A stretch of 59,895 bases of DNA, taken from contig DVIS01000046.1 in the NCBI GenBank assembly GCA_018711135.1, forward strand, positions 1 to 59,895. The letters run 5' to 3'. The position numbers were made by a program, and so were the translations under genes. This DNA comes from Candidatus Onthousia faecavium (GTDB lineage: Bacteria > Bacillota_I > Bacilli_A > RF39 > UBA660). Below the pieces are notes generated by a model. That model made no database searches and was not told the DNA's origin. It worked only from the letters and a program-made list of their open reading frames with translations. Below, one piece after another: positions 5,464 through 59,895 of this stretch (the first letter of the stretch is position 1; every line of letters begins with the position of its first letter).

Positions 5464-6721
5464 TATTTTCTCTCCCTTCTAGAATATAAATTGTATTAAT
5501 ACTAGTTTTTCTAGCCACAGCAACAATCTCATCTTTAGTAACTTTTTGCATTTTTTCTCTTTTTGTTTCAATATCATCTACGCCAAGCAATTCAATCATA
5601 TAATAACTTTCAATAATTTGTAGAGCACTTTCAATAATATCATCTAAAGCACTAGTATAATATTCTTTAGCTTTTATAACCATATTATCATCAAACTTAC
5701 CCTTTGCTAAATCTTTAAGTATCATTTTAACAATTTTTACAGCCTCTTTACTTTTACCACTACTAATACCACCTCTAATAATAATGATATTATCTAATTT
5801 ATTAGGAGTACTTGAGATAGTATATGCTAAAGATTTTTTTTCTCTTACCTCGTTAAAGAGTAAAGACTCTGTCCCTCCACCTAAAATAACATTTAGTAAT
5901 GACAAAGGATAATTACGTTCATAATCAGTTAAACCAAGCGTATTTAAAGTAATAATAAGATTATCCTGACTACTCTCTATATTCTCAGTTACTACTTTTA
6001 CTTTAGAATTTTCTTTCCGCGCAACAAGAGTTGGTAAAGCTTTTTTCTTATAGGTATTAATTGGAAAAATCTCTCTTATCAAGTTAGTCATCTCTTCACT
6101 ATCAAAGGAGCCAAGAACAAAAACATCTACATAGTTATGTTTAATAACATTTTGATAGTACTCATAAAGATTTTCTTTTGTTATTTTTTCTAAATCTTCT
6201 AGATATCCTATACCTCTATAACCTGTTACAGATGAAGGAAATGACTCTTCAAGCCCTCTCATTAAAGCATAAGTCATTTTATCTTCAACAAGACGTTTTA
6301 AATCATTTTTATACTCTTCATAGACAATATCAAATTCAAGGTCACCAAAACTATTATGTTCAACTTTAGGATTAAAGATAATAGAGTTTAAAAGTTCTAA
6401 ACTTTTTCTAAAATTACCAGGTTCTGTATATTTATCATGTAATACTCTTAGACTAATACTAGTATCTAAGTAATTACCAATTCTTCTATTTGCCCCTGCT
6501 ATATTAACAGCATATAAATCTTGTTCTTTTTTCGTAAGTTCTACTTTACTGGGATAATCTTTGGTTGCTAACATTAAAATGCGTGCTAAAAAGTTTCTTT
6601 TTGTAATATTTTCTTTAAGCGCTTCTTCTCTAAAGAATATTTTAACAGTAATAGTCTTATATAAATCAGTCTTAATTAGATGTAGATTATAAGACCCTAA
6701 TTCTTTTTTTGTGTATTCCAT
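5444..6721 (-). CDS. M16-family peptidase, non-catalytic partner (YmfF-like)
   Basis: 'LLFNEVREKKSLAYTISS' M16 C-domain, no HXXEH; overlaps its partner gene. Confidence 0.85.
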   Translation of the reverse strand: MEYTKKELGSYNLHLIKTDLYKTITVKIFFREEALKENITKRNFLARILMLATKDYPSKVELTKKEQDLYAVNIAGANRRIGNYLDTSISLRVLHDKYTEPGNFRKSLELLNSIIFNPKVEHNSFGDLEFDIVYEEYKNDLKRLVEDKMTYALMRGLEESFPSSVTGYRGIGYLEDLEKITKENLYEYYQNVIKHNYVDVFVLGSFDSEEMTNLIREIFPINTYKKKALPTLVARKENSKVKVVTENIESSQDNLIITLNTLGLTDYERNYPLSLLNVILGGGTESLLFNEVREKKSLAYTISSTPNKLDNIIIIRGGISSGKSKEAVKIVKMILKDLAKGKFDDNMVIKAKEYYTSALDDIIESALQIIESYYMIELLGVDDIETKREKMQKVTKDEIVAVARKTSINTIYILEGRENSGESNT

Positions 6722-7620: not shown

Positions 7621-9477
7621 CTAGGAAGCAAGGGCAAGTGTGAAAGGATTTTGCAGAGTTCCATCTCCCCCGGTGATGATGACGTTTTGTTTTAGATTTA
7701 GGGATGGTTTAATGCTGATAGCAACTTGTGTGGTGTCAGTAGGGATTGAACTACCGCTGTTACGAATACGATGCACATAATTTGTATTATTATATGGTGT
7801 TAAAGTCCAATACATAGTTGTTAAATTTGTGGGAATATTTTCTCCTTTTTCACTATATCTTGTAAATTGTCCGGCCATTAACTCACCTAGTCTTAATAAT
7901 CCAACTTTTGTATAGATAATACTTGTTGTAAAAATATTGTCTGTGGTATTGGTATATTTTGCTAATTTATAGGAATCACTATCTCCTACAACACCTAAAT
8001 ACCATGTACTACTTTCTTCTATCATGGCTATATCTTCGGATTTTAAATACCCATTTTCTATATTTAAATAATCTCTATTCAAAAACGTCCCTATTGTATT
8101 GTTATTAGTAAATATTGAATTATTTCCAAAAGTTGTAGTTATAAAATTACCTGACTTTTTTAATGGCTCAGCACTTGTTATTTTTGTGCCCATCACATTT
8201 TCATGACTTACTATTCGATATAAATTATTTTCTCCTGTACCAAACCTTATGTATTCTCCACTATATCTTGTGTTTAATAATGTACCTAAGAGATTAGTGT
8301 CATTATCTCCATCTATACGATAAGGATTATTTTCTGTTCCATTACCTTTTACTATTTTAATACTTGGTTTTAGATTTATTGTCGGACGAATTCCTGCTAC
8401 CTCTGTTGGCAAATCATAACTTATACTACCATCACTAAAAACAACACATACTTGAGTATCATTATATGGCGTGATACTCCACCAACCAAGTCCATTATTT
8501 AAATAACCGGTGGTATAATCTGTACCACTATAACTCATAGTATGTTCATAAGAACTTAATAGACCTACTGGATCAGTCACCAATGTAGTTTTAGCTAATT
8601 TAGTAGTTTCTGCAGTCTCTGTCGCATTCCAGACACTATTCATCTTTATAAACTTTTCTGGCTCTCTTAAATTACCAAGAAAACCGTCAACACTAATATC
8701 ATTTAACCATTCTTCCATATAACTACCTTCAAATGCTGTATTACCACTTTCATTATAAGAAATTGCACTTATATTCCATTGTGTTACTAATTTAACACTA
8801 TTATCACTTGTGTCTATTGATACTGCTCTCCATAATTTACCACTATACCAAATATAGTTATTTGGATCTTCTCCTGTTACAAAGTATTGTTCATTATCTT
8901 CTACATTTATATTATTTTTAGTATCAAAAAGAATTGTATCAGAAACAGTATTAGTTATTTCTCTAAATAAATGTCCATTACTTGGTAAACTAAGATTATT
9001 ATAATCTAGGCCTACACTTACTCCTAAGTTTATTATTTGTTCTTCTTCTGTATGGTTTGCTAGTACTATTTGATAAGTTTGACTAGAACTTATGGTATTA
9101 ACTTTTTCTAGATTTACTCCAGTGTCTATTGGTGGTGTATTATAGTTATCTATGATTTTATAACCAGCAAAGACTCCACTTGGAAGATTATTTAAATAAT
9201 AGAAATTAAATCTAGCCATTCTCTCATTTGGATTACTTAAAGTAATCGTAAAAGTTTTTTCTTCTTTTGGTCCAACAACCAATTTATCTGTACTAACTCC
9301 ATCTATTTTCAAAACATAACTTAATGTCCCCGTAACAATGCTTATAGCATTACTTTTTTCTTTGCTAACAGTAAACATGGCATAAGAAAAGTAACTTGTT
9401 AGTAAAAGAAAAGCAATTAATATTACACATATCATATATATTTTTGATATCTTAGTATTTAATAATATTTGTTTCAT
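7621..9477 (-). CDS. Exported/surface protein: TasA/SipW-type N-terminal module plus two DUF6273-like (C-type-lectin-like) domains
   Basis: Hydrophobic N-terminus ending 'SYFSYAMF'. Two repeats 'WW/YW..TPY...G/SI(R/K)P..NL...G.GT..NP(Y/F)'. N-terminal ~170 aa closely resemble the 29095..30864 protein. Domain names are from recall. Confidence 0.65.
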   Translation of the reverse strand: MKQILLNTKISKIYMICVILIAFLLLTSYFSYAMFTVSKEKSNAISIVTGTLSYVLKIDGVSTDKLVVGPKEEKTFTITLSNPNERMARFNFYYLNNLPSGVFAGYKIIDNYNTPPIDTGVNLEKVNTISSSQTYQIVLANHTEEEQIINLGVSVGLDYNNLSLPSNGHLFREITNTVSDTILFDTKNNINVEDNEQYFVTGEDPNNYIWYSGKLWRAVSIDTSDNSVKLVTQWNISAISYNESGNTAFEGSYMEEWLNDISVDGFLGNLREPEKFIKMNSVWNATETAETTKLAKTTLVTDPVGLLSSYEHTMSYSGTDYTTGYLNNGLGWWSITPYNDTQVCVVFSDGSISYDLPTEVAGIRPTINLKPSIKIVKGNGTENNPYRIDGDNDTNLLGTLLNTRYSGEYIRFGTGENNLYRIVSHENVMGTKITSAEPLKKSGNFITTTFGNNSIFTNNNTIGTFLNRDYLNIENGYLKSEDIAMIEESSTWYLGVVGDSDSYKLAKYTNTTDNIFTTSIIYTKVGLLRLGELMAGQFTRYSEKGENIPTNLTTMYWTLTPYNNTNYVHRIRNSGSSIPTDTTQVAISIKPSLNLKQNVIITGGDGTLQNPFTLALAS

Positions 9478-9501
9478 CTTATACTCCTTTCTTAAATCAC
9501 A

Positions 9502-9535
9502 AATAAGAACAGGATAACTCTATCCTGTTCTTATT
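9502..9535 (-). terminator. Leader hairpin (putative attenuator) upstream of the 618-aa gene
   Basis: Perfect 15-bp inverted repeat AATAAGAACAGGATA (9502-9516) / TATCCTGTTCTTATT (9521-9535) with a 4-nt loop, about 25 nt before the main ATG. Confidence 0.75.
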
Positions 9536-9618
9536 CTATGATTAAAGAAAGTACTTAAGCTTCTAAAGCCCCCCCCCCAGGTAACTTGTTGTAAACGTGC
9601 GCTAGTGCTCATTTTCAT
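9520..9618 (-). CDS. Putative poly-G leader peptide, in-frame state (G10)
   Basis: MKMSTSARLQQVTWGGGFRSLSTFFNHRIRTG*; RBS AAGAAGG; C10 on + at 9569-9578; the stop TAG (9520-9522) lies at the hairpin loop. Confidence 0.65.
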   Translation of the reverse strand: MKMSTSARLQQVTWGGGFRSLSTFFNHRIRTG

Positions 9619-23866: not shown

Positions 23867-24072
23867 AATTCACCTCTTCCAGGCAAAATTATAGCATAGC
23901 TGTTACAACGAGGGCAATATAAAAAGAAGAACTTTTTGTCTTCTGTTTTTTCTATAAAATGTTATTTGTTCGATTATTTTGTTTTAATATATATGCTACA
24001 TTATTAACGTAATATCTAGTTGTTTAGGTACTATCCCCTTAAACTTATAATTTTATACTGTTGAAAGGGAAA

Positions 24073-24171
24073 ATGGATATGAGAAAAATAGAAAAATTTC
24101 TTTGTTTAATCACTATCCTTCTTATTATTTTGAATTATTTCATTATAATTAAATTAGTACCTAACAAGTGA
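24073..24171 (+). CDS. Small hydrophobic peptide, candidate type I toxin (locus B)
   Basis: MDMRKIEKFLCLITILLIILNYFIIIKLVPNK*; SD-like GAAAGGGA; own promoter; not in the ORF track. Confidence 0.55.
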   Translation: MDMRKIEKFLCLITILLIILNYFIIIKLVPNK

Positions 24172-24249
24172 AAACTAGGTATTCCCTTTTTTATTGTATG
24201 TAAATTTTCTTTACATATACATAGTACCATAAGTATATGACATATTCAA
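24160..24249 (-). ncRNA. Candidate antisense antitoxin RNA and its promoter (locus B)
   Basis: Minus-strand TTGAAT(24244-24249)-N17-TACTAT(24221-24226) with extended TG, downstream of the ABC operon terminator and pointing into the peptide gene. The 3' end is uncertain. Confidence 0.4.
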
Positions 24250-24276
24250 ATACCGATTATGCCCAATTATATATAG

Positions 24277-29094: not shown

Positions 29095-30864
29095 CTACTG
29101 TAAATTAACTAAAGTAACCCTAAATGTTAAACCATAAGCTGCTATTCCATTATCATCATAATTATCAAAATAAAATATTCCTCCCTGTATAGAACTAATA
29201 AATGCTCCTCCCCGTCCTTGCCAAGCATTATTTGCATCGACTAGTTCTTTTATATCATTATACCAACCCCAATTCTCTCCTAAACCATGAGAAATACAAG
29301 CATTACCACTGCATGAGGTTAGAACATCATCACTTGTATATTTATCATAATATTTAGATTCAGGCATTGTTTCAAAACCAGAGTTTTCCACTAAGCCATT
29401 ATAATTTGCCATTACAAGTTCAAAAGCTCCACCACTCATATCATATACTCCATATATCGTTCCTGTGGTACTTGCTCCTGTTCCATTAATATCTACATCA
29501 TAAGTATATTGACATCCATAATCAGCAGAAGTTCCCCCACTAGGTGCCCCCAAACTACATCCTGTTATTATCTCATCCGATTTATTTTGATACACCTCTT
29601 TATTAGCTCCAGTAAAATTAACATTACCTAACTTTCCATACTTAGATTGAGATAGGTATGTAATAATAGCCCATTCACTATTTTTTATCATATGCGTATC
29701 TACATCAGTACTAAAACCATACCGATTACCAGGATTATTCATTTTTAAACTAACTTGAAACATAGTAGCAACATTAATATTATCCCAACTAGATACATTA
29801 GGTTTAATCATAACATCTAAATTCATAGAGTCAATACCACTTTCTAAAGCTTCAATATTACTACTTGAAGATTCAAACTTACCAACCCAAATTCCTGATA
29901 ACTCTTTTCCATCAAAGGTAAAAGCATCTGGAGTATACCAATCATCAGCACCTATTCCTTCACTTACAAGATATTTGGCTGTTCCTTTATCTTTAACATT
30001 TGGTTCTATAAACTTTATATCTATTTCTCCTGGTAATTCTTGAGTTGGCATTGTTGTTAAAAAATTCCCTTGCTTTCCATAGTAATTAATACCATCTTCA
30101 CTTCCAATACTGTAACTATATCTTGGTATCCATACCCACATAGTTTCAATATCATCCATCGAAATTACAGTGCCAATATCTGCTTCTAAATATGTATCTC
30201 TAGTTGAACTGCTTACTGTTACTGCATTAGCCCATTCGCCTTTATCATAGTTATACCAGTTTGCCTCATCAGTCTTTACCCAATTATTATTCTCATAAAT
30301 AACAGGAATCATATTATTATCTAATTCTGGAGTATTAACTGTAAAAATCTCTTCAAATAAATTTCCGTTACTTGGTAAAGCTAAATCATTATAGTCTAAT
30401 CCGACCTCAACTCCTAAATTGATAACAATTTGCTCATTATTATTATTAATGACCTTTAATTGATAAATTTGACTTGCACCAATTCCTTCTTTTTCAAGAT
30501 TTACTCCAGTTTCTTCTGGAGGAATATTAAAGTCTTTAATCTTTAAATACCCCATTTCAATATTTTCAAATATTGGAGTTATATAATAGAAATTAAATCT
30601 TGCTAAACGATTATTAGGATTACTTAAAGTAATCGTAAAAGTTTTTTCTTCATTTGGACCAACAACTAGTTCATCAGTACTAACTCCATCTACTTTCAAA
30701 TCATAACTTAATGTCCCTGTCACAATACTTATCGCATTATTCTTTTCTTTAGTTACAGTAAACATCGCATAAGAAAAGTAACTTGTTAATAGTAATAAGG
30801 TTATTAAAATTACACTTATTATATATATTTTTGATACTTTAGTATTTAATAATAGTCTTTTCAT
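29095..30864 (-). CDS. Exported/surface protein: shared TasA/SipW-type N-terminal module plus FGE-sulfatase-like (C-type lectin fold) C-terminal region
   Basis: N-terminus paralogous to 7621..9477. 'MWVWIPRY', 'GIWVGKFE', 'HM.KNSEW....YL.QS.YG', 'GT.YGVYDMSGG..E.V', 'RGG...G.F...G...FRV'. Confidence 0.65.
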   Translation of the reverse strand: MKRLLLNTKVSKIYIISVILITLLLLTSYFSYAMFTVTKEKNNAISIVTGTLSYDLKVDGVSTDELVVGPNEEKTFTITLSNPNNRLARFNFYYITPIFENIEMGYLKIKDFNIPPEETGVNLEKEGIGASQIYQLKVINNNNEQIVINLGVEVGLDYNDLALPSNGNLFEEIFTVNTPELDNNMIPVIYENNNWVKTDEANWYNYDKGEWANAVTVSSSTRDTYLEADIGTVISMDDIETMWVWIPRYSYSIGSEDGINYYGKQGNFLTTMPTQELPGEIDIKFIEPNVKDKGTAKYLVSEGIGADDWYTPDAFTFDGKELSGIWVGKFESSSSNIEALESGIDSMNLDVMIKPNVSSWDNINVATMFQVSLKMNNPGNRYGFSTDVDTHMIKNSEWAIITYLSQSKYGKLGNVNFTGANKEVYQNKSDEIITGCSLGAPSGGTSADYGCQYTYDVDINGTGASTTGTIYGVYDMSGGAFELVMANYNGLVENSGFETMPESKYYDKYTSDDVLTSCSGNACISHGLGENWGWYNDIKELVDANNAWQGRGGAFISSIQGGIFYFDNYDDNGIAAYGLTFRVTLVNLQ

Positions 30865-30892
30865 CTCTTTCTCCTTTCATTTAACCATAAAA

Positions 30893-30920
30893 AAGAACAG
30901 AATCCTTCTATCCTGTTCTT
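30893..30920 (-). terminator. Leader intrinsic terminator (putative attenuator) upstream of the 589-aa gene
   Basis: Minus strand AAGAACAGGAT-AGAAGG-ATTCTGTTCTT followed by TTTT (11 pairs including one G-U), about 28 nt before the main ATG. Confidence 0.75.
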
Positions 30921-30950
30921 ATTCCACGATTAAAGAAAGTACTTAAGCTT

Positions 30951-31055
30951 CTAAAGTACCCCCCCCCAGGTAACTTCTTGTAAACGGGTGTTAGTATAAA
31001 TTTGGTACACCAATTCTTTAGGATATACCATCATCTTTATTCCCTTCATCTTCAT
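30951..31055 (-). CDS. Putative poly-G leader peptide, out-of-frame state (G9)
   Basis: MKMKGIKMMVYPKELVYQIYTNTRLQEVTWGGVL*; C9 on + at 30959-30967. With G8 or G11 it would read ...YFRSLSTFFNRGIRTG* and stop at 30908-30910 inside the hairpin. Confidence 0.6.
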   Translation of the reverse strand: MKMKGIKMMVYPKELVYQIYTNTRLQEVTWGGVL

Positions 31056-31137: not shown

Positions 31138-31450
31138 CTCCTTGTTATCCCAAAGCCCTAATTTCAAGATAAAATATATTCTATTCTCCATAAGCTTGAA
31201 TTTCACTAAAAACAATAAACACTATTTTTTCACTATTCATTTTAATCTTAAACATCATTTAATACTTTCAAATCTTTATTTACATAAGTAGGAAAATTTC
31301 TTAAAGCTATTATTCTCTTGATAATCTAAAAATAGTTATAAACAAATCTAACACAACCAAAAGTTTTTATGAATTAATAGTTTTTGATTACCTGTTGGAT
31401 ATAGTCTAAACTTATATACTTTATATGCTTCCACTTTGATACCTCCCCTG
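31138..31450 (-). mobile_element. Non-autonomous internal-deletion derivative (MITE-like) of a tnpB element
   Basis: GTG at 31434 gives VEAYKVYKFRLYPTGNQKLLIHK/TFGCVRFVYNYF (TnpB N-terminal helix, frameshifted). It joins directly to 3'-end sequence homologous to 59108-59240. Confidence 0.8.
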
Positions 31451-31526: not shown

Positions 31527-31558
31527 AAAAAAAGTCCAAAGAAACGTCTTGGACTTAC
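31527..31558 (-). terminator. Intrinsic terminator after the putative 6S RNA
   Basis: AAGTCCAAG...TTTGGACTT followed by a T run on the minus strand. Confidence 0.7.
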
Positions 31559-31715
31559 GATAAAACCTATACTTATGTACAGGTGGGTGTATATAGTCAG
31601 TTCTCAGGATCCCTATCCAGTGGAAAGGTCTTCAACACAAACATGACAATCATCAATACTCCCGTATCGTTAATTTAGTCGGTTTTATACTAAGATGTCC
31701 TATACGTTTTCTTTA
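31558..31715 (-). ncRNA. ssrS: Probable 6S RNA
   Basis: Closing stem ATAAAACC/GGTTTTAT. Internal 'CGGGAG...TTGAAG...GAGAACTG...CACCCACCTG...GTATAGGTT' resembles Firmicute 6S RNA. Extended -10 near 31725-31730 and a downstream terminator. Ends approximate. Confidence 0.6.
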
Positions 31716-31746
31716 GACATTTATAGTATATCATACTATATGATAA

Positions 31747-33054: not shown

Positions 33055-33159
33055 ACTCCTTCTTTCTTCATATTATAGCTTATGTATTTTATATTTTCAA
33101 ATATACGGTTTCTTCTTTACAGACTTTGACATCTAAGTTATGATAAGATTGGTGATTTT

Positions 33160-34660: not shown

Positions 34661-35563
34661 CTACTTTAATCTTAATCTTTTTTCATCAGCAATTATTCTA
34701 TCATAAGCTTCATTAATTTTGTGATAGTATTTTTTATTTTCGATGTAAAAATCTCCCAATAAAGATTTATTTATTATACACTTGATAATGGCATCTTCCA
34801 TATTATCACACACGGTAATTTGTTTATTTTTATCTAATGATTGTAGTTCTTGAAAAGATTTTGGCTTATCATATAGAGCACTGTATTTATATAAAGGTAT
34901 AACAATATCACTATCAGTACCTATTTTAGAATTAAATGGATAAGCTAAATTATTGTCATCATATCCTACAGTATAGAGTCTTATAGCCCTTGTTGTTATA
35001 TCAATTAAATAACTAATATCCTCATCTCTTACATAATTAATAGCATGATTTCCTAAAAATTTTTCTTTAAAGTAGTTATTAAGAAATAATCTTGTCTTTG
35101 CTAAATTATAATCGTTATGTAATGAAAGGGTTGTAAGAACTAAATCATTAGGCTTATTGAAATAATCCAAAAATTGTTGTAAGAAAGCAGCAGTATGACG
35201 ACAACAACCCTCACCCCTAAAGATTGATAAAGACAAATCAAAGATAAACGTTTCGTCTTGACAATTGATAAGATCATAACTAATGTTATTATTGATATAT
35301 TTTCCTGTTTCTGATAAAAGACCTCGATGAATCAGATGCTGACAAAGAATAGTTAATTCCGTAGCAGTATTAAAACCTAGTTCTTCTTTTAGGTCTTTAA
35401 TATGGCTAAAAACAAGATTATAATTTTCAACAATTTCTAAGTAATCAGGATTACTACTATATCCACTTATAAAATTTTCTCTTTCATTAGTAGTTTTTAT
35501 TACATAGACAAGTTCTTTTATAATATATTTTAACGATATTAATTCATCCTTAACTGTACTCAT
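34661..35563 (-). CDS. Hypothetical protein with a transglutaminase/papain-like Cys-His-Asp arrangement
   Basis: 'GEGCCRHTAAFL' ... 'NHAINYV' ... 'YLIDIT'. Confidence 0.5.
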   Translation of the reverse strand: MSTVKDELISLKYIIKELVYVIKTTNERENFISGYSSNPDYLEIVENYNLVFSHIKDLKEELGFNTATELTILCQHLIHRGLLSETGKYINNNISYDLINCQDETFIFDLSLSIFRGEGCCRHTAAFLQQFLDYFNKPNDLVLTTLSLHNDYNLAKTRLFLNNYFKEKFLGNHAINYVRDEDISYLIDITTRAIRLYTVGYDDNNLAYPFNSKIGTDSDIVIPLYKYSALYDKPKSFQELQSLDKNKQITVCDNMEDAIIKCIINKSLLGDFYIENKKYYHKINEAYDRIIADEKRLRLK

Positions 35564-35741
35564 AGTTTCCTTCTTTCTATAGGAAACTATTTTAGCACGA
35601 AAGTTGGTGGTGGTATATATTTTTTTTGATAAAATGCAACTTGTTCGATTGTATTACAAATATATTTATAGTATATTAGCTACTAGGAAATACTGACTGT
35701 TGAGTACTTGCCTCCATCTTATTAGGAAGGAGGCTGATGTT

Positions 35742-35831
35742 ATGAAGAAGAAAGATTTACTAATCTCTTTTCTAATATTAATCATCATTTTATTAATAGT
35801 TTCTTTAGTGATTCTATCGATAGAAAAATAG
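35742..35831 (+). CDS. Small hydrophobic peptide, candidate type I toxin (locus A)
   Basis: MKKKDLLISFLILIIILLIVSLVILSIEK*; strong SD GGAAGGAGG sequestered by upstream GCCTCC; promoter TTGTAT-N17-TATATT (35649-35677). Confidence 0.7.
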   Translation: MKKKDLLISFLILIIILLIVSLVILSIEK

Positions 35832-35973
35832 TACTCAATCTAACGATTAAGTACTAAACTCAAATTAACATGGGTAAGTACTCAACACGTGAAAGTTAAG
35901 TATTTCCCATTTTTATTTTATGCAAGACTCTTGCTTACATACTTATATTAGCATATATTTACCGAGTTGACAA
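35824..35973 (-). ncRNA. Candidate antisense antitoxin RNA (~115 nt) with promoter and terminator (locus A)
   Basis: TTGTCA(35968-35973)-N17-TAATAT(35945-35950) with extended TG. Terminator AGTACTTAATC-GTTA-GATTGAGTACT-ATTTTT overlaps the peptide stop codon. Confidence 0.6.
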
Positions 35974-36048
35974 GATATTTAGGTTATCATAATTGGCTCT
36001 ACTTATAATATTAACACAATCTTTAACATATAAATTAGTGGTGATATT

Positions 36049-36813
36049 ATGTCTAATTTTCTATATGCTTTTATGTTGTCATCTTTAGCAGGATTATCTA
36101 CTTTAGTTGGTTTTATCCCTGTGTTATTCAATTTAAAGAAAGAGAATTTAATTATTCTTTTAGCTTTAGCTTTTGCAAGTGGTGTTATGATTTGTGTATC
36201 TTTAACTGATTTAATACCAGAGAGTTTCTCTCTTTTGAAGACAATTTTTAAAGATTTTCCAGCTTTATTATTTCTTTTAATTTTTATTACAATAGGAATT
36301 ATTGTTTCTATTTCTATAGATAAGTTTTTACCTAAAACAGATTATAAAGATGTAAATAACAAAAAGCTATATAGATTAGGACTTGTTGCAATGCTTGCGA
36401 TTATTATGCACAATATTCCTGAAGGAGTTGCTACTTTTTTATCTTCTGCTACTAATAAGTCTTTAGGATTATCTTTAGCTTTAGCGATTAGTTTTCATAA
36501 TATTCCAGAAGGTATAAGTATTGCTATTCCCATTTATTTTAGTACCAAATCGAAAGTTAAAGCTTTTCTATATACACTAATATCTGGACTATCTGAACCT
36601 TTTGGAGCGATTCTTGCTTATTTATTTTTATCTAATATTATCAATAACTTTATTATGAGTATAATTTTAGCTTTGACCGCTGGGATTATGATTCATATAA
36701 GTTGTTATGAATTATTAAAGGAATCTTTAAGTTATAAGAGAAAAGCTATAACCATTCTTTGTTTTGTTATTGGCTTTAGTTTTATGTTACTTTCACATTT
36801 CTTGTTAGGATAA
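36049..36813 (+). CDS. zupT: ZIP-family zinc transporter (ZupT-like)
   Basis: 'AFASGVM', 'MHNIPEG', 'FHNIPEGISIAIP', 'SGLSEPFGA'. Confidence 0.9.
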   Translation: MSNFLYAFMLSSLAGLSTLVGFIPVLFNLKKENLIILLALAFASGVMICVSLTDLIPESFSLLKTIFKDFPALLFLLIFITIGIIVSISIDKFLPKTDYKDVNNKKLYRLGLVAMLAIIMHNIPEGVATFLSSATNKSLGLSLALAISFHNIPEGISIAIPIYFSTKSKVKAFLYTLISGLSEPFGAILAYLFLSNIINNFIMSIILALTAGIMIHISCYELLKESLSYKRKAITILCFVIGFSFMLLSHFLLG

Positions 36814-59238: not shown

Positions 59239-59895
59239 TTAATTTTGATAGTGTAACTTTAATCCTTCAAATAAGATATTTATACTAGCATTTATATCTC
59301 TATCTAACTCTCTTCCACAACTTTGGCATTTATATTCTCTTATACTTAAATCTTTTAAACTTGCGTCTTTTTGTCCACAGTAAGAACAAATCTGACTACT
59401 TGGATAGTATGTATCTATTTTATAGTAGAATTTACCTTGTAATTTACTCTTCCATTCTAGTAAGCTACATAATTTGGAAAAGCTGGCATCTAAGATGTAT
59501 TTTGCTAGGCTTTTATTTTTACTCATCTCTTTTTTATTACGATATCCTCTTATATCAACTAAAACTAATTTAGGGAGTTTTATTTGTCTTTTTTCTAAAT
59601 CAATCTTTATATTGCTATAAATATTATTTTTATAACTACTTACAATACAGTTAGTTTTATAACTTTGATAAGATCTTTTAGCTTTAAAAACAGGATAGTT
59701 ACCTCTTTTAGAAATTCATACTCATTATTTAGTACTTTTAAATCTTTACATAAGCAGGAAGATTTCTTAAAGCCATTATTCTTCTGATAATCTAGAAAAT
59801 GGTTATAAATCAATCTAACACAACCAAAAGTGTTTATGAATTAATACCTTTTGATTAGCTGTTGGATATAGCCTAAACTTATATGCTTTATATGA
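59239..59895 (-). pseudogene. tnpB: Decayed TnpB (RNA-guided nuclease) with frameshift and internal deletions; runs off the window end
   Basis: N-terminal SYKAYKFRLYPTANQKVLIHK/TFGCVR..YN; intact C-terminal 95-aa ORF with zinc ribbon (CSYC, CQSC) and 'DRDINASINI'. The RuvC-I region is missing between 'IRGYRNKK' and 'EMSKNKSLAK'. Confidence 0.88.

Follow-up and report, generated by a model that had tools for sequence, protein, structure and literature searches.

Contig DVIS01000046.1 of the Candidatus Onthousia faecavium metagenome-assembled genome (MAG) GCA_018711135.1, analyzed here over a stretch of 59,895 nucleotides (the window), carries upstream of the gene zupT an unannotated module of ~350 bases, which we refer to as locus A. 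It pairs a candidate gene for a tiny membrane peptide, carried on a tightly folded mRNA, with a small antisense RNA gene that faces it. An earlier note, made from the sequence alone, had proposed that this locus is of the type I toxin-antitoxin kind, in which the product of one RNA would be held in check by the other. The evidence assembled below, drawn from RNA folding, comparison with homologous copies, and public metatranscriptomes, leads us to put at about 0.75 the probability that the chromosomal locus A belongs to an undescribed family of type I toxin-antitoxin-like modules.

The elements of the module are collected in Table 1; all of their coordinates were fixed by string search, and positions 35300-36300 of the window were read.

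Table 1. Features of locus A and of the second copy of the module, locus B, in window coordinates (SD, Shine-Dalgarno sequence; ORF, open reading frame; UTR, untranslated region)
Feature	Position	Strand	Description
Toxin promoter region	35640..35677	+	Conserved upstream block, -35, 17-nt spacer, -10
Conserved upstream block	35640-35651	+	CTTGTTCGATTG
Toxin -35	35649-35654	+	TTGTAT
Toxin -10	35672-35677	+	TATATT, after a 17-nt spacer
Predicted full-length toxin mRNA	35684..35920	+	~235 nt; leader, ORF, structured 3' UTR
X, 5' arm of long-range closing helix	35686..35713	+	3' end overlaps the anti-SD
Leader segment	35686-35694	+	GGAAATACT
Leader segment	35698-35712	+	TGTTGAGTACTTGCC
SD-locking hairpin	35710..35734	+	GCCTCC (35710-35715) pairs with GGAGGC (35729-35734) of the SD GGAAGGAGG
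SD	35725-35734	+	GGAAGGAGGC; 8 nt upstream of the ORF
Candidate toxin ORF	35742-35831	+	ATG..TAG, 29 aa, MKKKDLLISFLILIIILLIVSLVILSIEK
Post-stop hairpin	35829..35856		Begins on, and so overlaps, the stop codon (35829-35831)
X', 3' arm of closing helix	35872-35907	+	With terminator tail, 35872..35920
3' segment	35873-35887	+	GGTAAGTACTCAACA
3' segment	35899-35907	+	AGTATTTCC, then ATTTTTATTTT
Tail after X' hairpin	35909-35920	+	AUUUUUAUUUU
Predicted antisense (antitoxin) RNA	35938 to ~35821	-	~118 nt; fold z = -5.68
Antisense promoter	35945..35973	-	TTGTCA (35973..35968), 17 nt, extended -10 TGcTAATAT (35953..35945)
Antisense terminator	35856..35829	-	Perfect 12-bp stem, then TTTTTCTATC (35828..35819)
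Locus B (second copy)	23947-24255	+	nhmmer E = 7e-46; 12 kb from locus A, divergent
Locus B peptide ORF	24079-24171	+	M(DM)RKIEKFLCLITILLIILNYFIIIKLVPNK
Locus B X	24012-24038		
Locus B X'	24156-24183		
Locus B antisense extended -10	24229..24221	-	

The public sequencing runs that contain the locus A region are chicken-gut metagenomes. Four public contigs carry the locus, and because the gene calls on them leave the stretch empty (5515-6001 in locus coordinates), the ORF counts as unannotated, as the earlier note had it. With 99.8-100% identity to the window, these contigs (L001-L004) are uninformative on constraint. The encoded peptide has KKKD at its N-terminus followed by an apolar run of 22 residues, with a grand average of hydropathy (GRAVY) of 1.88. 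Its promoter, TTGTAT-N17-TATATT, lies where the earlier note placed it and would start transcription at ~35684. The -35 element matches the consensus at 3 of 6 positions, and because of this weak match the promoter scanner did not list it; it nevertheless aligns column by column with the promoter of relatives, TTGATT-17-TGnTATTAT (TGcTATTAT), which the scanner does find there (e.g., in the homologue L009). In four of the homologous loci (L091, L099, L101, and L085), a small hairpin and T-run (TTACGAAAAyyCGTAA CTwwTTTATTAC) stands immediately upstream of the toxin -35 and resembles a terminator that would insulate the toxin gene from read-through; other subfamilies, including locus A, have the conserved block TGTATCTTGTTCGATTG in its place.

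The predicted mRNA folds far more stably than shuffled sequence. The minimum-energy structure of 35684-35922 reaches -74.4 kcal/mol, compared with -40.4 +/- 4.0 kcal/mol for shuffles (z = -8.49), and none of 200 shuffles did as well. This structure contains the pairing of GCCTCC with GGAGGC that was thought to lock the SD, as well as both long-range helices proposed previously, one of 15 bp with a single G.U pair (35698-35712 with 35873-35887) and one of 9 bp (35686-35694 with 35899-35907). The closing helix X:X' amounts to 28 bp at locus A, including 3 G.U pairs, and contributes -36.1 kcal/mol. Folded by itself, the 3' arm X' forms a hairpin (-14.2 kcal/mol, z = -3.6) followed by a U-run, and for this reason X' can also be taken as the intrinsic terminator of the toxin mRNA.

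Homologous copies provide an important constraint on these predictions. Searches with nhmmer, using the locus and then a profile, recovered full-length homologues in five related species together with partial ones cut at locus ends, and a metagenome scan with the best conserved stretch of the family (antisense promoter plus 5' hairpin) added 18 further loci. There are ~30 homologous copies, all in uncultured 'Candidatus Onthousia'-like Bacilli of the gut with small genomes (one related MAG chromosome is 1.52 Mb long); L011 and L093 have tandem pairs, and L085 has two copies. Conservation of the ORF in relatives, which the earlier note had made a test of its reading, is evident from the SD and ORF kept in ~22 intact copies, with a strong SD before the peptide in all of them. 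The homologous peptides are 22-33 aa long and share the motif M-x-K-K-D-[FL]-L-I, with a basic/acidic cluster at the N-terminus, plus an apolar helix; their GRAVY values range from 1.3 to 2.3. They fall into subfamilies: the commonest, of 22 aa, consists of MNKKDFLILSLIIIIILLIIFR and variants; another joins locus A with MNKKDFLVFSLVMIIFLLLFLLFIVLI, MSRKDLLIVSLIIIILLLIKLLFLAI, and MNKKDCLISSLIIILFLQNLIFLFMILALI; a third (MRKIEKFL...KLVPTP, 30-33 aa) includes locus B; and a further one is represented by MKTKTFIIKVLKLIPLILLSLSFLVLTFKIK.

The fold is maintained across the family. In minimum-energy structures of 21 homologous mRNAs, the 5' end is closed on the 3' end in every one, and the SD is mostly paired in all 21 (unpaired probability 0-0.44). 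The sequences of the closing helix vary among subfamilies with their complementarity kept (GGGTGTTTTACCTC/GAGGTAACACCC, TTAGGTACTATCCC/GGGATAGTACCTAA, and GTTGGGTGGGCCTC/GAGGCCACTCAAC, with GTTGAGTACTTGCC/GGTAAGTACTCAAC at locus A), and the matrix of duplex energies between 5' and 3' arms is block-diagonal, with cognate pairs at -35 to -46 kcal/mol and cross-subfamily pairs at -7 to -30 kcal/mol (for locus A, -36 kcal/mol cognate vs. -15 to -25 kcal/mol non-cognate). When the two arms were aligned, pairing extended to 86.8% of cells, compared with 79.0 +/- 0.9% after shuffling, and compensatory changes on both sides were found in 14 of the 20 closing-helix pairs; neither value was reached in 500 shuffles, and sliding the partner arm as a control lowered pairing to 38-52%. 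These counts are conservative and understate the pairing because MAFFT shifts registers between subfamilies and leaves locus A one base out of register. The same register shifts limited a whole-mRNA RNAalifold analysis, from which no more emerged than the outer helix and a portion of the SD lock. Closing helices contain one to five G.U pairs per copy and are more stable on the plus than on the minus strand in 18 of 21 copies. Since the G.U pairs favor the plus strand, selection appears to act on the toxin mRNA, not on the DNA or on a read-through antisense transcript.

The pairing motif recurs in the post-stop hairpin, as AGTACT at locus A and as CACCC or GTACCTA in other subfamilies. As an alternative partner of the leader, the arm of this hairpin is subfamily-specific in subfamily 1, locus A, and the L091 group, and several subfamily-1 copies use it in their minimum-energy folds. 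This modeling suggests a leader:post-stop-hairpin pairing as an alternative conformation, which we regard as a lead. A separate feature is confined to subfamily-1 toxin mRNAs and is not in locus A: their first 22 nt, TCTACTAGGAATACCTAGTAGG, fold locally into a perfect hairpin, after which comes GGUGUUUUAC (e.g., L009 2250..2229, minus strand). The scanner flagged this hairpin as terminator-like, and it is an alternative to the long-range helix.

Variation within the ORF bears on whether the peptide is made. In subfamily 1 (10 sequences), the proportions of synonymous and nonsynonymous differences are pS = 0.62 and pN = 0.14 (pN/pS = 0.23), and variable sites at codon positions 1/2/3 number 11/7/21 over 22 codons; in subfamily 2 (three sequences), pN/pS = 0.20. 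Because pN/pS is ~0.2 and variation is dominated by the third position, the ORF is, judging from these sequence comparisons, under purifying selection and hence translated. Such selection also favors the main rival explanation, namely a gene for a non-toxic small membrane protein, such as a subunit or modulator of a membrane complex, whose level is tuned by a cis-antisense RNA with no addiction or growth arrest. Further points in its favor are that the copies sit in core-genome neighborhoods free of mobile-element genes, with no phage, plasmid, or IMG/VR match, and that the toxicity of the peptide is something we infer. Several points speak against it: copy number and position vary among close species, tandem duplicates occur, no partner gene is consistently adjacent, and peptides of different subfamilies can barely be aligned while the RNA architecture is maintained. 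Further, ORFs have been inactivated repeatedly with the antisense gene retained, and a double lock on translation, by SD hairpin and end-to-end closure, is typical of genes with harmful products. We therefore consider a harmless membrane protein improbable, although it deserves more weight than the other alternatives to a toxin-antitoxin module.

The peptides are absent from the protein collections searched. An exact look-up of ten variants in a collection of 15 billion proteins found none of them, and five variants compared with Pfam and NCBIfam gave only noise (E > 0.1), with no match to models of Fst, Ldr, or other type I toxins even at E <= 10. At the RNA level, an Rfam search of the window at the gathering threshold returned no hits, and permissive scans of the region and of L009 found no family near its threshold; the best Rfam match in the locus A region is a miRNA model at 22 bits, compared with a threshold of 65. 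In the literature, neither the family nor a type I system of any sort in the genus was described in the papers we found. The suggestion that the locus was unannotated and its peptide family possibly undescribed is borne out by these searches.

Where the copies reside can be used to weigh two more alternatives. At least nine related species have the module in the gap that separates a murC-like gene from a radical-SAM gene. Occupied sites, measured in at least four species, span 433-444 nt, or 818 nt with two copies (e.g., L009 1895-2329, L023, L029, and L011), and the same site is empty (92-123 nt) in the species of the window (33055-33159) and in seven others, so that presence or absence of the whole module is clean between species. 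At occupied sites, the usual promoter-like stretch of the radical-SAM gene, TTGACA...TATGATAAG, is replaced, and no target-site duplication is visible when occupied and empty sites are compared. Further copies neighbor PFOR, pyruvate kinase, peptidase C1, FkbM methyltransferases, and ABC transporters, for a total of at least 10 different housekeeping neighborhoods, and no mobile-element genes were seen near the copies in the neighborhoods examined. Searches of plasmids and phages (blastn with the locus and tblastn with the peptide) gave no match, although the low-complexity filter probably suppresses the peptide query, and scans of IMG/VR, one using the family anchor and one the locus-specific leader, gave no hits.

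In the window species, the module is upstream of zupT and not at the murC/radical-SAM site. Its position there, directly upstream and in the same orientation, could point to a cis-regulatory leader or small ORF of the downstream zinc-uptake genes (zupT at 36049-36813, yidD, and a znuA-like gene), as could a plus-strand TTGACA (35967-35972) and a palindrome, TTATCATAA (35984-35992), situated between module and zupT. Synteny contradicts this reading: at least nine related species have no module upstream of zupT, their homologue being found, oppositely oriented, at a distance of 1.7-3.6 kb between murC and the radical-SAM gene, and other copies sit beside the unrelated genes listed above. In addition, the module has its own terminator, and RNA contigs stop short of zupT. 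We give a zupT leader next to no credence. The TTGACA lies back to back with the antisense -35 (TTGTCA, minus strand), and together with the palindrome it may, on sequence grounds, be a divergent zupT promoter with a Zur/Fur-type operator that shares DNA with the antitoxin promoter. ZupT proteins of uncultured Bacilli, 'Candidatus Onthousia' MAGs among them, share 77-82% identity with the one encoded here.

A mobile or repeat element of miniature size, in which X and X' would be inverted repeats at the DNA level and the ORF and "promoters" incidental, might be suspected because the module is a dispersed, multi-copy unit of ~330-380 bp with presence/absence at a fixed site, and because a deletion between internal repeats gave rise to locus B. 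However, the inverted repeats are internal rather than terminal, and conserved sequence, including both promoters, extends beyond them on both sides; target-site duplications are missing from the comparison of occupied and empty sites; owing to G.U pairs, one RNA strand systematically forms the better helix; and the ORF varies in a codon-position-specific manner within a region that is transcribed. For the internal repeats, the missing duplication, and the strand-specific helix, we rejected a miniature inverted-repeat transposable element, which we regard as very improbable.

Locus B, presumably the counterpart implied by the earlier note's name "locus A", proved to be a second copy of the family. 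On one side of it an ABC ATPase gene starts (23866, minus strand), and on the other an ABC exporter gene ends (24347). Compared with its relatives L089, L092, and L095, it lacks the post-stop hairpin, which was deleted between two copies of the repeat TAGTACCTA that those relatives retain, and since this hairpin is the antisense terminator, locus B may be a crippled or variant copy. At least six copies have lost the toxin and retained the antisense gene, by a core deletion (L014), an in-frame stop and lost leader (L086), a frameshift (L088), or loss of the 5' half (L096, L097, and L102). For a toxic action of the peptide, this recurrent loss of the ORF beside a kept antisense gene is the sole support, and an indirect one. 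At L096, the toxin half of the degraded module is replaced (1059-1180) by a stretch (...CTGTTGGATATAACCTAAATTTATATGCTTTATAT...) similar to a ~150-nt repeat that occurs twice in the window, at 31279-31427 and 59745-59894, with 89-91% identity; from its sequence, the repeat may mark where an element that moves or recombines ends.

Opposite the toxin gene, the convergent extended -10 promoter and the minus-strand terminator over the stop codon were both found as described earlier, and they delimit an RNA only slightly longer than the ~115 nt previously estimated. In a terminator scan, 35856..35819 (minus strand) was the sole terminator-like site in 1 kb, where 0.1 would be expected. The predicted RNA opens with a 5' hairpin (35934..35922), continues through an A-rich linker into the mirror of X', and closes with the terminator; it has no ORF of more than four codons and is complementary to the entire toxin 3' UTR and the stop codon, ~100 nt. 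Relatives have a homologous promoter directed at the toxin (TTGAAA-17-TGaTACTAT), which the scanner recovers, and its conservation was judged on loci found without that promoter as bait; no other part of the family is conserved as well across subfamilies as the promoter stretch. In 19 predicted homologous antisense RNAs, the 5' hairpin is invariant, an A-rich linker comes next, the middle hairpin mirrors the toxin terminator with compensatory changes, and a terminator hairpin follows; these RNAs, too, are without an ORF. The post-stop hairpin was present in 17 of 17 homologues tested, with differing sequences, and at locus A it is more stable on the minus strand (-14.9 kcal/mol) than on the plus strand (-9.8 kcal/mol). 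It therefore fits the role of antisense terminator, because where the plus strand has a C.A mismatch, the minus strand can form a G.U pair. A second complementarity between the antisense RNA and the 5' leader or initiation region was not detected, the best duplex being no better than shuffles (z = -1.0 at locus A and -2.0 at L009). At the level of sequence and of comparison among copies, an antisense gene with its own putative promoter and terminator thus overlaps the toxin mRNA.

RNA from the locus is present in four gut metatranscriptomes, in which contigs of 100% identity cover 35697-35870, 35707-35857, and 35719-35869 (the last in two runs) at depths of 2-11. They span leader, ORF, and hairpin, begin at or before 35697, and do not run on into zupT; flanking genes are uncovered in those runs, and within 20 kb only 6S RNA is more abundant than locus A. 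These contigs carry no strand, but because the antisense RNA is predicted to end at ~35821, RNA over 35697-35820 indicates the toxin mRNA. Ends at 35718/19/20 and 35868/69/70 recur in four runs from two studies, with one of the runs looking like DNA, and since reads are 151 nt long, the recurrent coordinates imply a preferred end, which would be a 5' end if it is the one immediately behind the anti-SD and a 3' end if it is the one immediately ahead of X'. We treat this recurrent end (~35719 or ~35870) only as a lead for processing and as a hint of a shorter RNA without the 3' fold-back element. At the homologue L009, contigs extend from the ORF through the antisense 5' hairpin to within 3 nt of the predicted antisense start; these too are unstranded, and conserved 31-mers common to several copies may have placed the contig end. 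The 6S RNA gene itself lies at 31529-31722 (minus strand; Rfam RF00013, 51.4 bits vs. a threshold of 46.4), reported by a focused scan and not by the whole-window scan at the gathering threshold. It is by far the most abundant RNA of the 20-kb stretch (depth 177-692), and its dominant species is ~125 nt long (31575/6-31699/700), with adaptor sequence on its flanks.

A mechanism that would accommodate these observations is as follows. A sigma-A-type promoter would give rise to a ~235-nt mRNA for a 29-aa single-helix membrane peptide, which would end at its own terminator hairpin, X'; after release, X' would refold onto the leader X, and the resulting ~28-bp helix would bury both ends of the mRNA, with a local GC-rich hairpin locking the SD. 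Because its ends are closed and its SD is locked, the full-length mRNA should be stable, with little translation. The convergent extended -10 promoter would produce a ~118-nt non-coding RNA that is the perfect complement of X', the post-stop hairpin, and the stop codon, and its pairing would create a ~100-bp duplex that, as in txpA/RatA and bsrG/SR4, would mark the mRNA out for decay of the RNase III type. Should the antisense level drop, mRNA would build up, and a part of it, opened or processed, would be translated into a peptide that inserts in the membrane and leads to cell arrest or death. Of these steps, we infer antisense transcription at locus A, decay by RNase III, translational inertness, the activation step, and toxicity; on activation, the only lead comes from the recurrent RNA ends. 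As the complement of X', the antisense RNA resembles the leader X and would have to compete with it.

Modeling makes decay the likely mode of antitoxin action in preference to a translational switch, because SD accessibility at locus A does not change with the antisense RNA: the SD is locked whether the 3' UTR is occupied or free, at 0.20 in both states. A model like that of SR4, in which the antisense RNA tightens the SD stem, was considered and not adopted; 15 of 21 copies show a weak trend in this direction, and locus A shows no change. A more elaborate and rather doubtful possibility is a three-way competition among RNAs of a kind not described for type I systems. The antisense RNA would act as a mimic of the leader and compete with it for X'; the post-stop motif, as a third copy that co-varies with X and X', would allow branch migration between two conformers; and the recurrent ~150-nt RNA (35718/20-35868/70) would be the translatable form, an excised core freed of the anti-SD and/or the fold-back arm.

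Taken as a whole, the proposal that locus A is a type I toxin-antitoxin module is supported by the conserved ORF, the fold-back, the antisense signals, the variable location of multiple copies, the broken toxins beside intact antisense genes, the lack of a match to known peptide or RNA families, and the RNA of the locus in metatranscriptomes. Several observations weigh against it. The toxin promoter of locus A is low in consensus strength. None of the contigs in the four metatranscriptomes covers 35871-35938, so the antisense RNA of locus A was not seen; the sole contig over 35840-35990, from run X29, was rejected as antisense-side RNA because its scattered low coverage over 20 kb looks like DNA. 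Modeling predicts neither an antisense-dependent translational switch nor an obvious route of activation at locus A. The asymmetry of dead toxins and kept antisense genes is partly built in, because five of the six broken copies came from the scan anchored on the antisense promoter, leaving only L014 unbiased. Finally, strong purifying selection on the peptide fits a beneficial small membrane protein equally well.

Elsewhere in the window, two paralogous upstream regions (9492-9606 and 30880-30995; 86-89% identical) each contain a C tract of ~8-10 bases in a genome of very low G+C content, in each case ~90 nt upstream of one of two large minus-strand ORFs that are paralogous (7621-9477 and 29095-30864). 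In sequence, these tracts look like slipped-strand phase-variation switches for surface proteins.

All described Gram-positive type I pairs have overlapping 3' ends, and for txpA/RatA and bsrG/SR4, duplex formation leads to RNase III decay (PMC4147584). Locus A resembles these systems and bsrE/SR5 of Bacillus subtilis in its convergent promoters, its small single-helix membrane peptide, and the enclosure of its SD in a stem. As in Bacillus, the antisense RNA covers the toxin 3' UTR (~75-120 nt there and ~100 nt here) and not the ribosome-binding site, and the same control, duplex formation and RNase III decay (PMC4147584), would be expected here. Unlike in txpA, bsrG, and bsrE, however, neither peptide nor RNA shows a sequence relationship detectable with Rfam, Pfam, or NCBIfam; the peptides are shorter (22-33 vs. 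38-59 aa); the loci lie among housekeeping genes rather than in prophage or skin elements; and the terminator hairpin of the mRNA doubles as a partner of the 5' end in a 28-bp closing helix. The tightening of the SD stem upon antisense binding known from SR4 is not predicted at locus A.

Other parts of the architecture recall more distant systems. In par of Enterococcus faecalis pAD1 (Fst RNA I/RNA II), RNA I contains a 5' upstream helix (5'-UH) and an SD-locking stem-loop (5'-SL) (PMC7472228), and locus A shares with it the convergent RNAs, a helix that sequesters the 5' end, and a separate SD stem-loop (PMC7472228). The peptide, like Fst, has a charged N-terminus of the M-K-D-L type followed by a hydrophobic helix, whereas it differs from Fst and Ldr in that both the PXXXG motif and the long charged tail at the C-terminus are missing and no Fst match was obtained from Pfam or NCBIfam. 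The overlap also comprises the whole 3' UTR (~100 nt), not merely a shared bidirectional terminator, and includes no second complementarity to the translation initiation region of the DRa/DRb kind. Long-distance 5'-3' pairing that closes the full-length mRNA, here supported by covariation, is known from hok/sok (R1) and aapA1/IsoA1 (Helicobacter pylori), which likewise offer alternative pairings between repeated motifs, and the hint of a shorter RNA without the 3' fold-back is a further likeness. In those systems, however, the antisense RNA binds the 5' leader or initiation region, whereas here it would bind the 3' fold-back element itself; moreover, the family has no mok-like frame, belongs to another phylum, and has no sequence similarity to them. 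With Ibs/Sib of Escherichia coli, it shares a very short, almost purely aliphatic toxin (18-19 aa there and 22 aa in the commonest subfamily here) and the presence of several copies per genome. Sib covers the entire ibs ORF and its ribosome-binding site, in contrast to an overlap restricted to the stop codon here, and there is no homology. We class it as a new family within a known kind of system, one that joins the 3'-overlap layout of Bacillus with a closing helix of the par/hok type and is a member of none of these groups.

Families of membrane toxins have been described mainly from cultured Proteobacteria and Firmicutes (PMC8309996). The family reported here leaves the concept of type I systems unchanged. 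It is a comparatively well-supported new family, with ~30 copies, covariation of the helix, a selected ORF, and RNA evidence, and it comes from a module that gene callers miss entirely. It provides a test case for the cooperation of a 3'-binding antisense RNA with a 5'-3' fold-back, its 22-aa peptides are among the shortest candidate toxins, and its DNA signature can be used to annotate such modules in MAGs of this kind.

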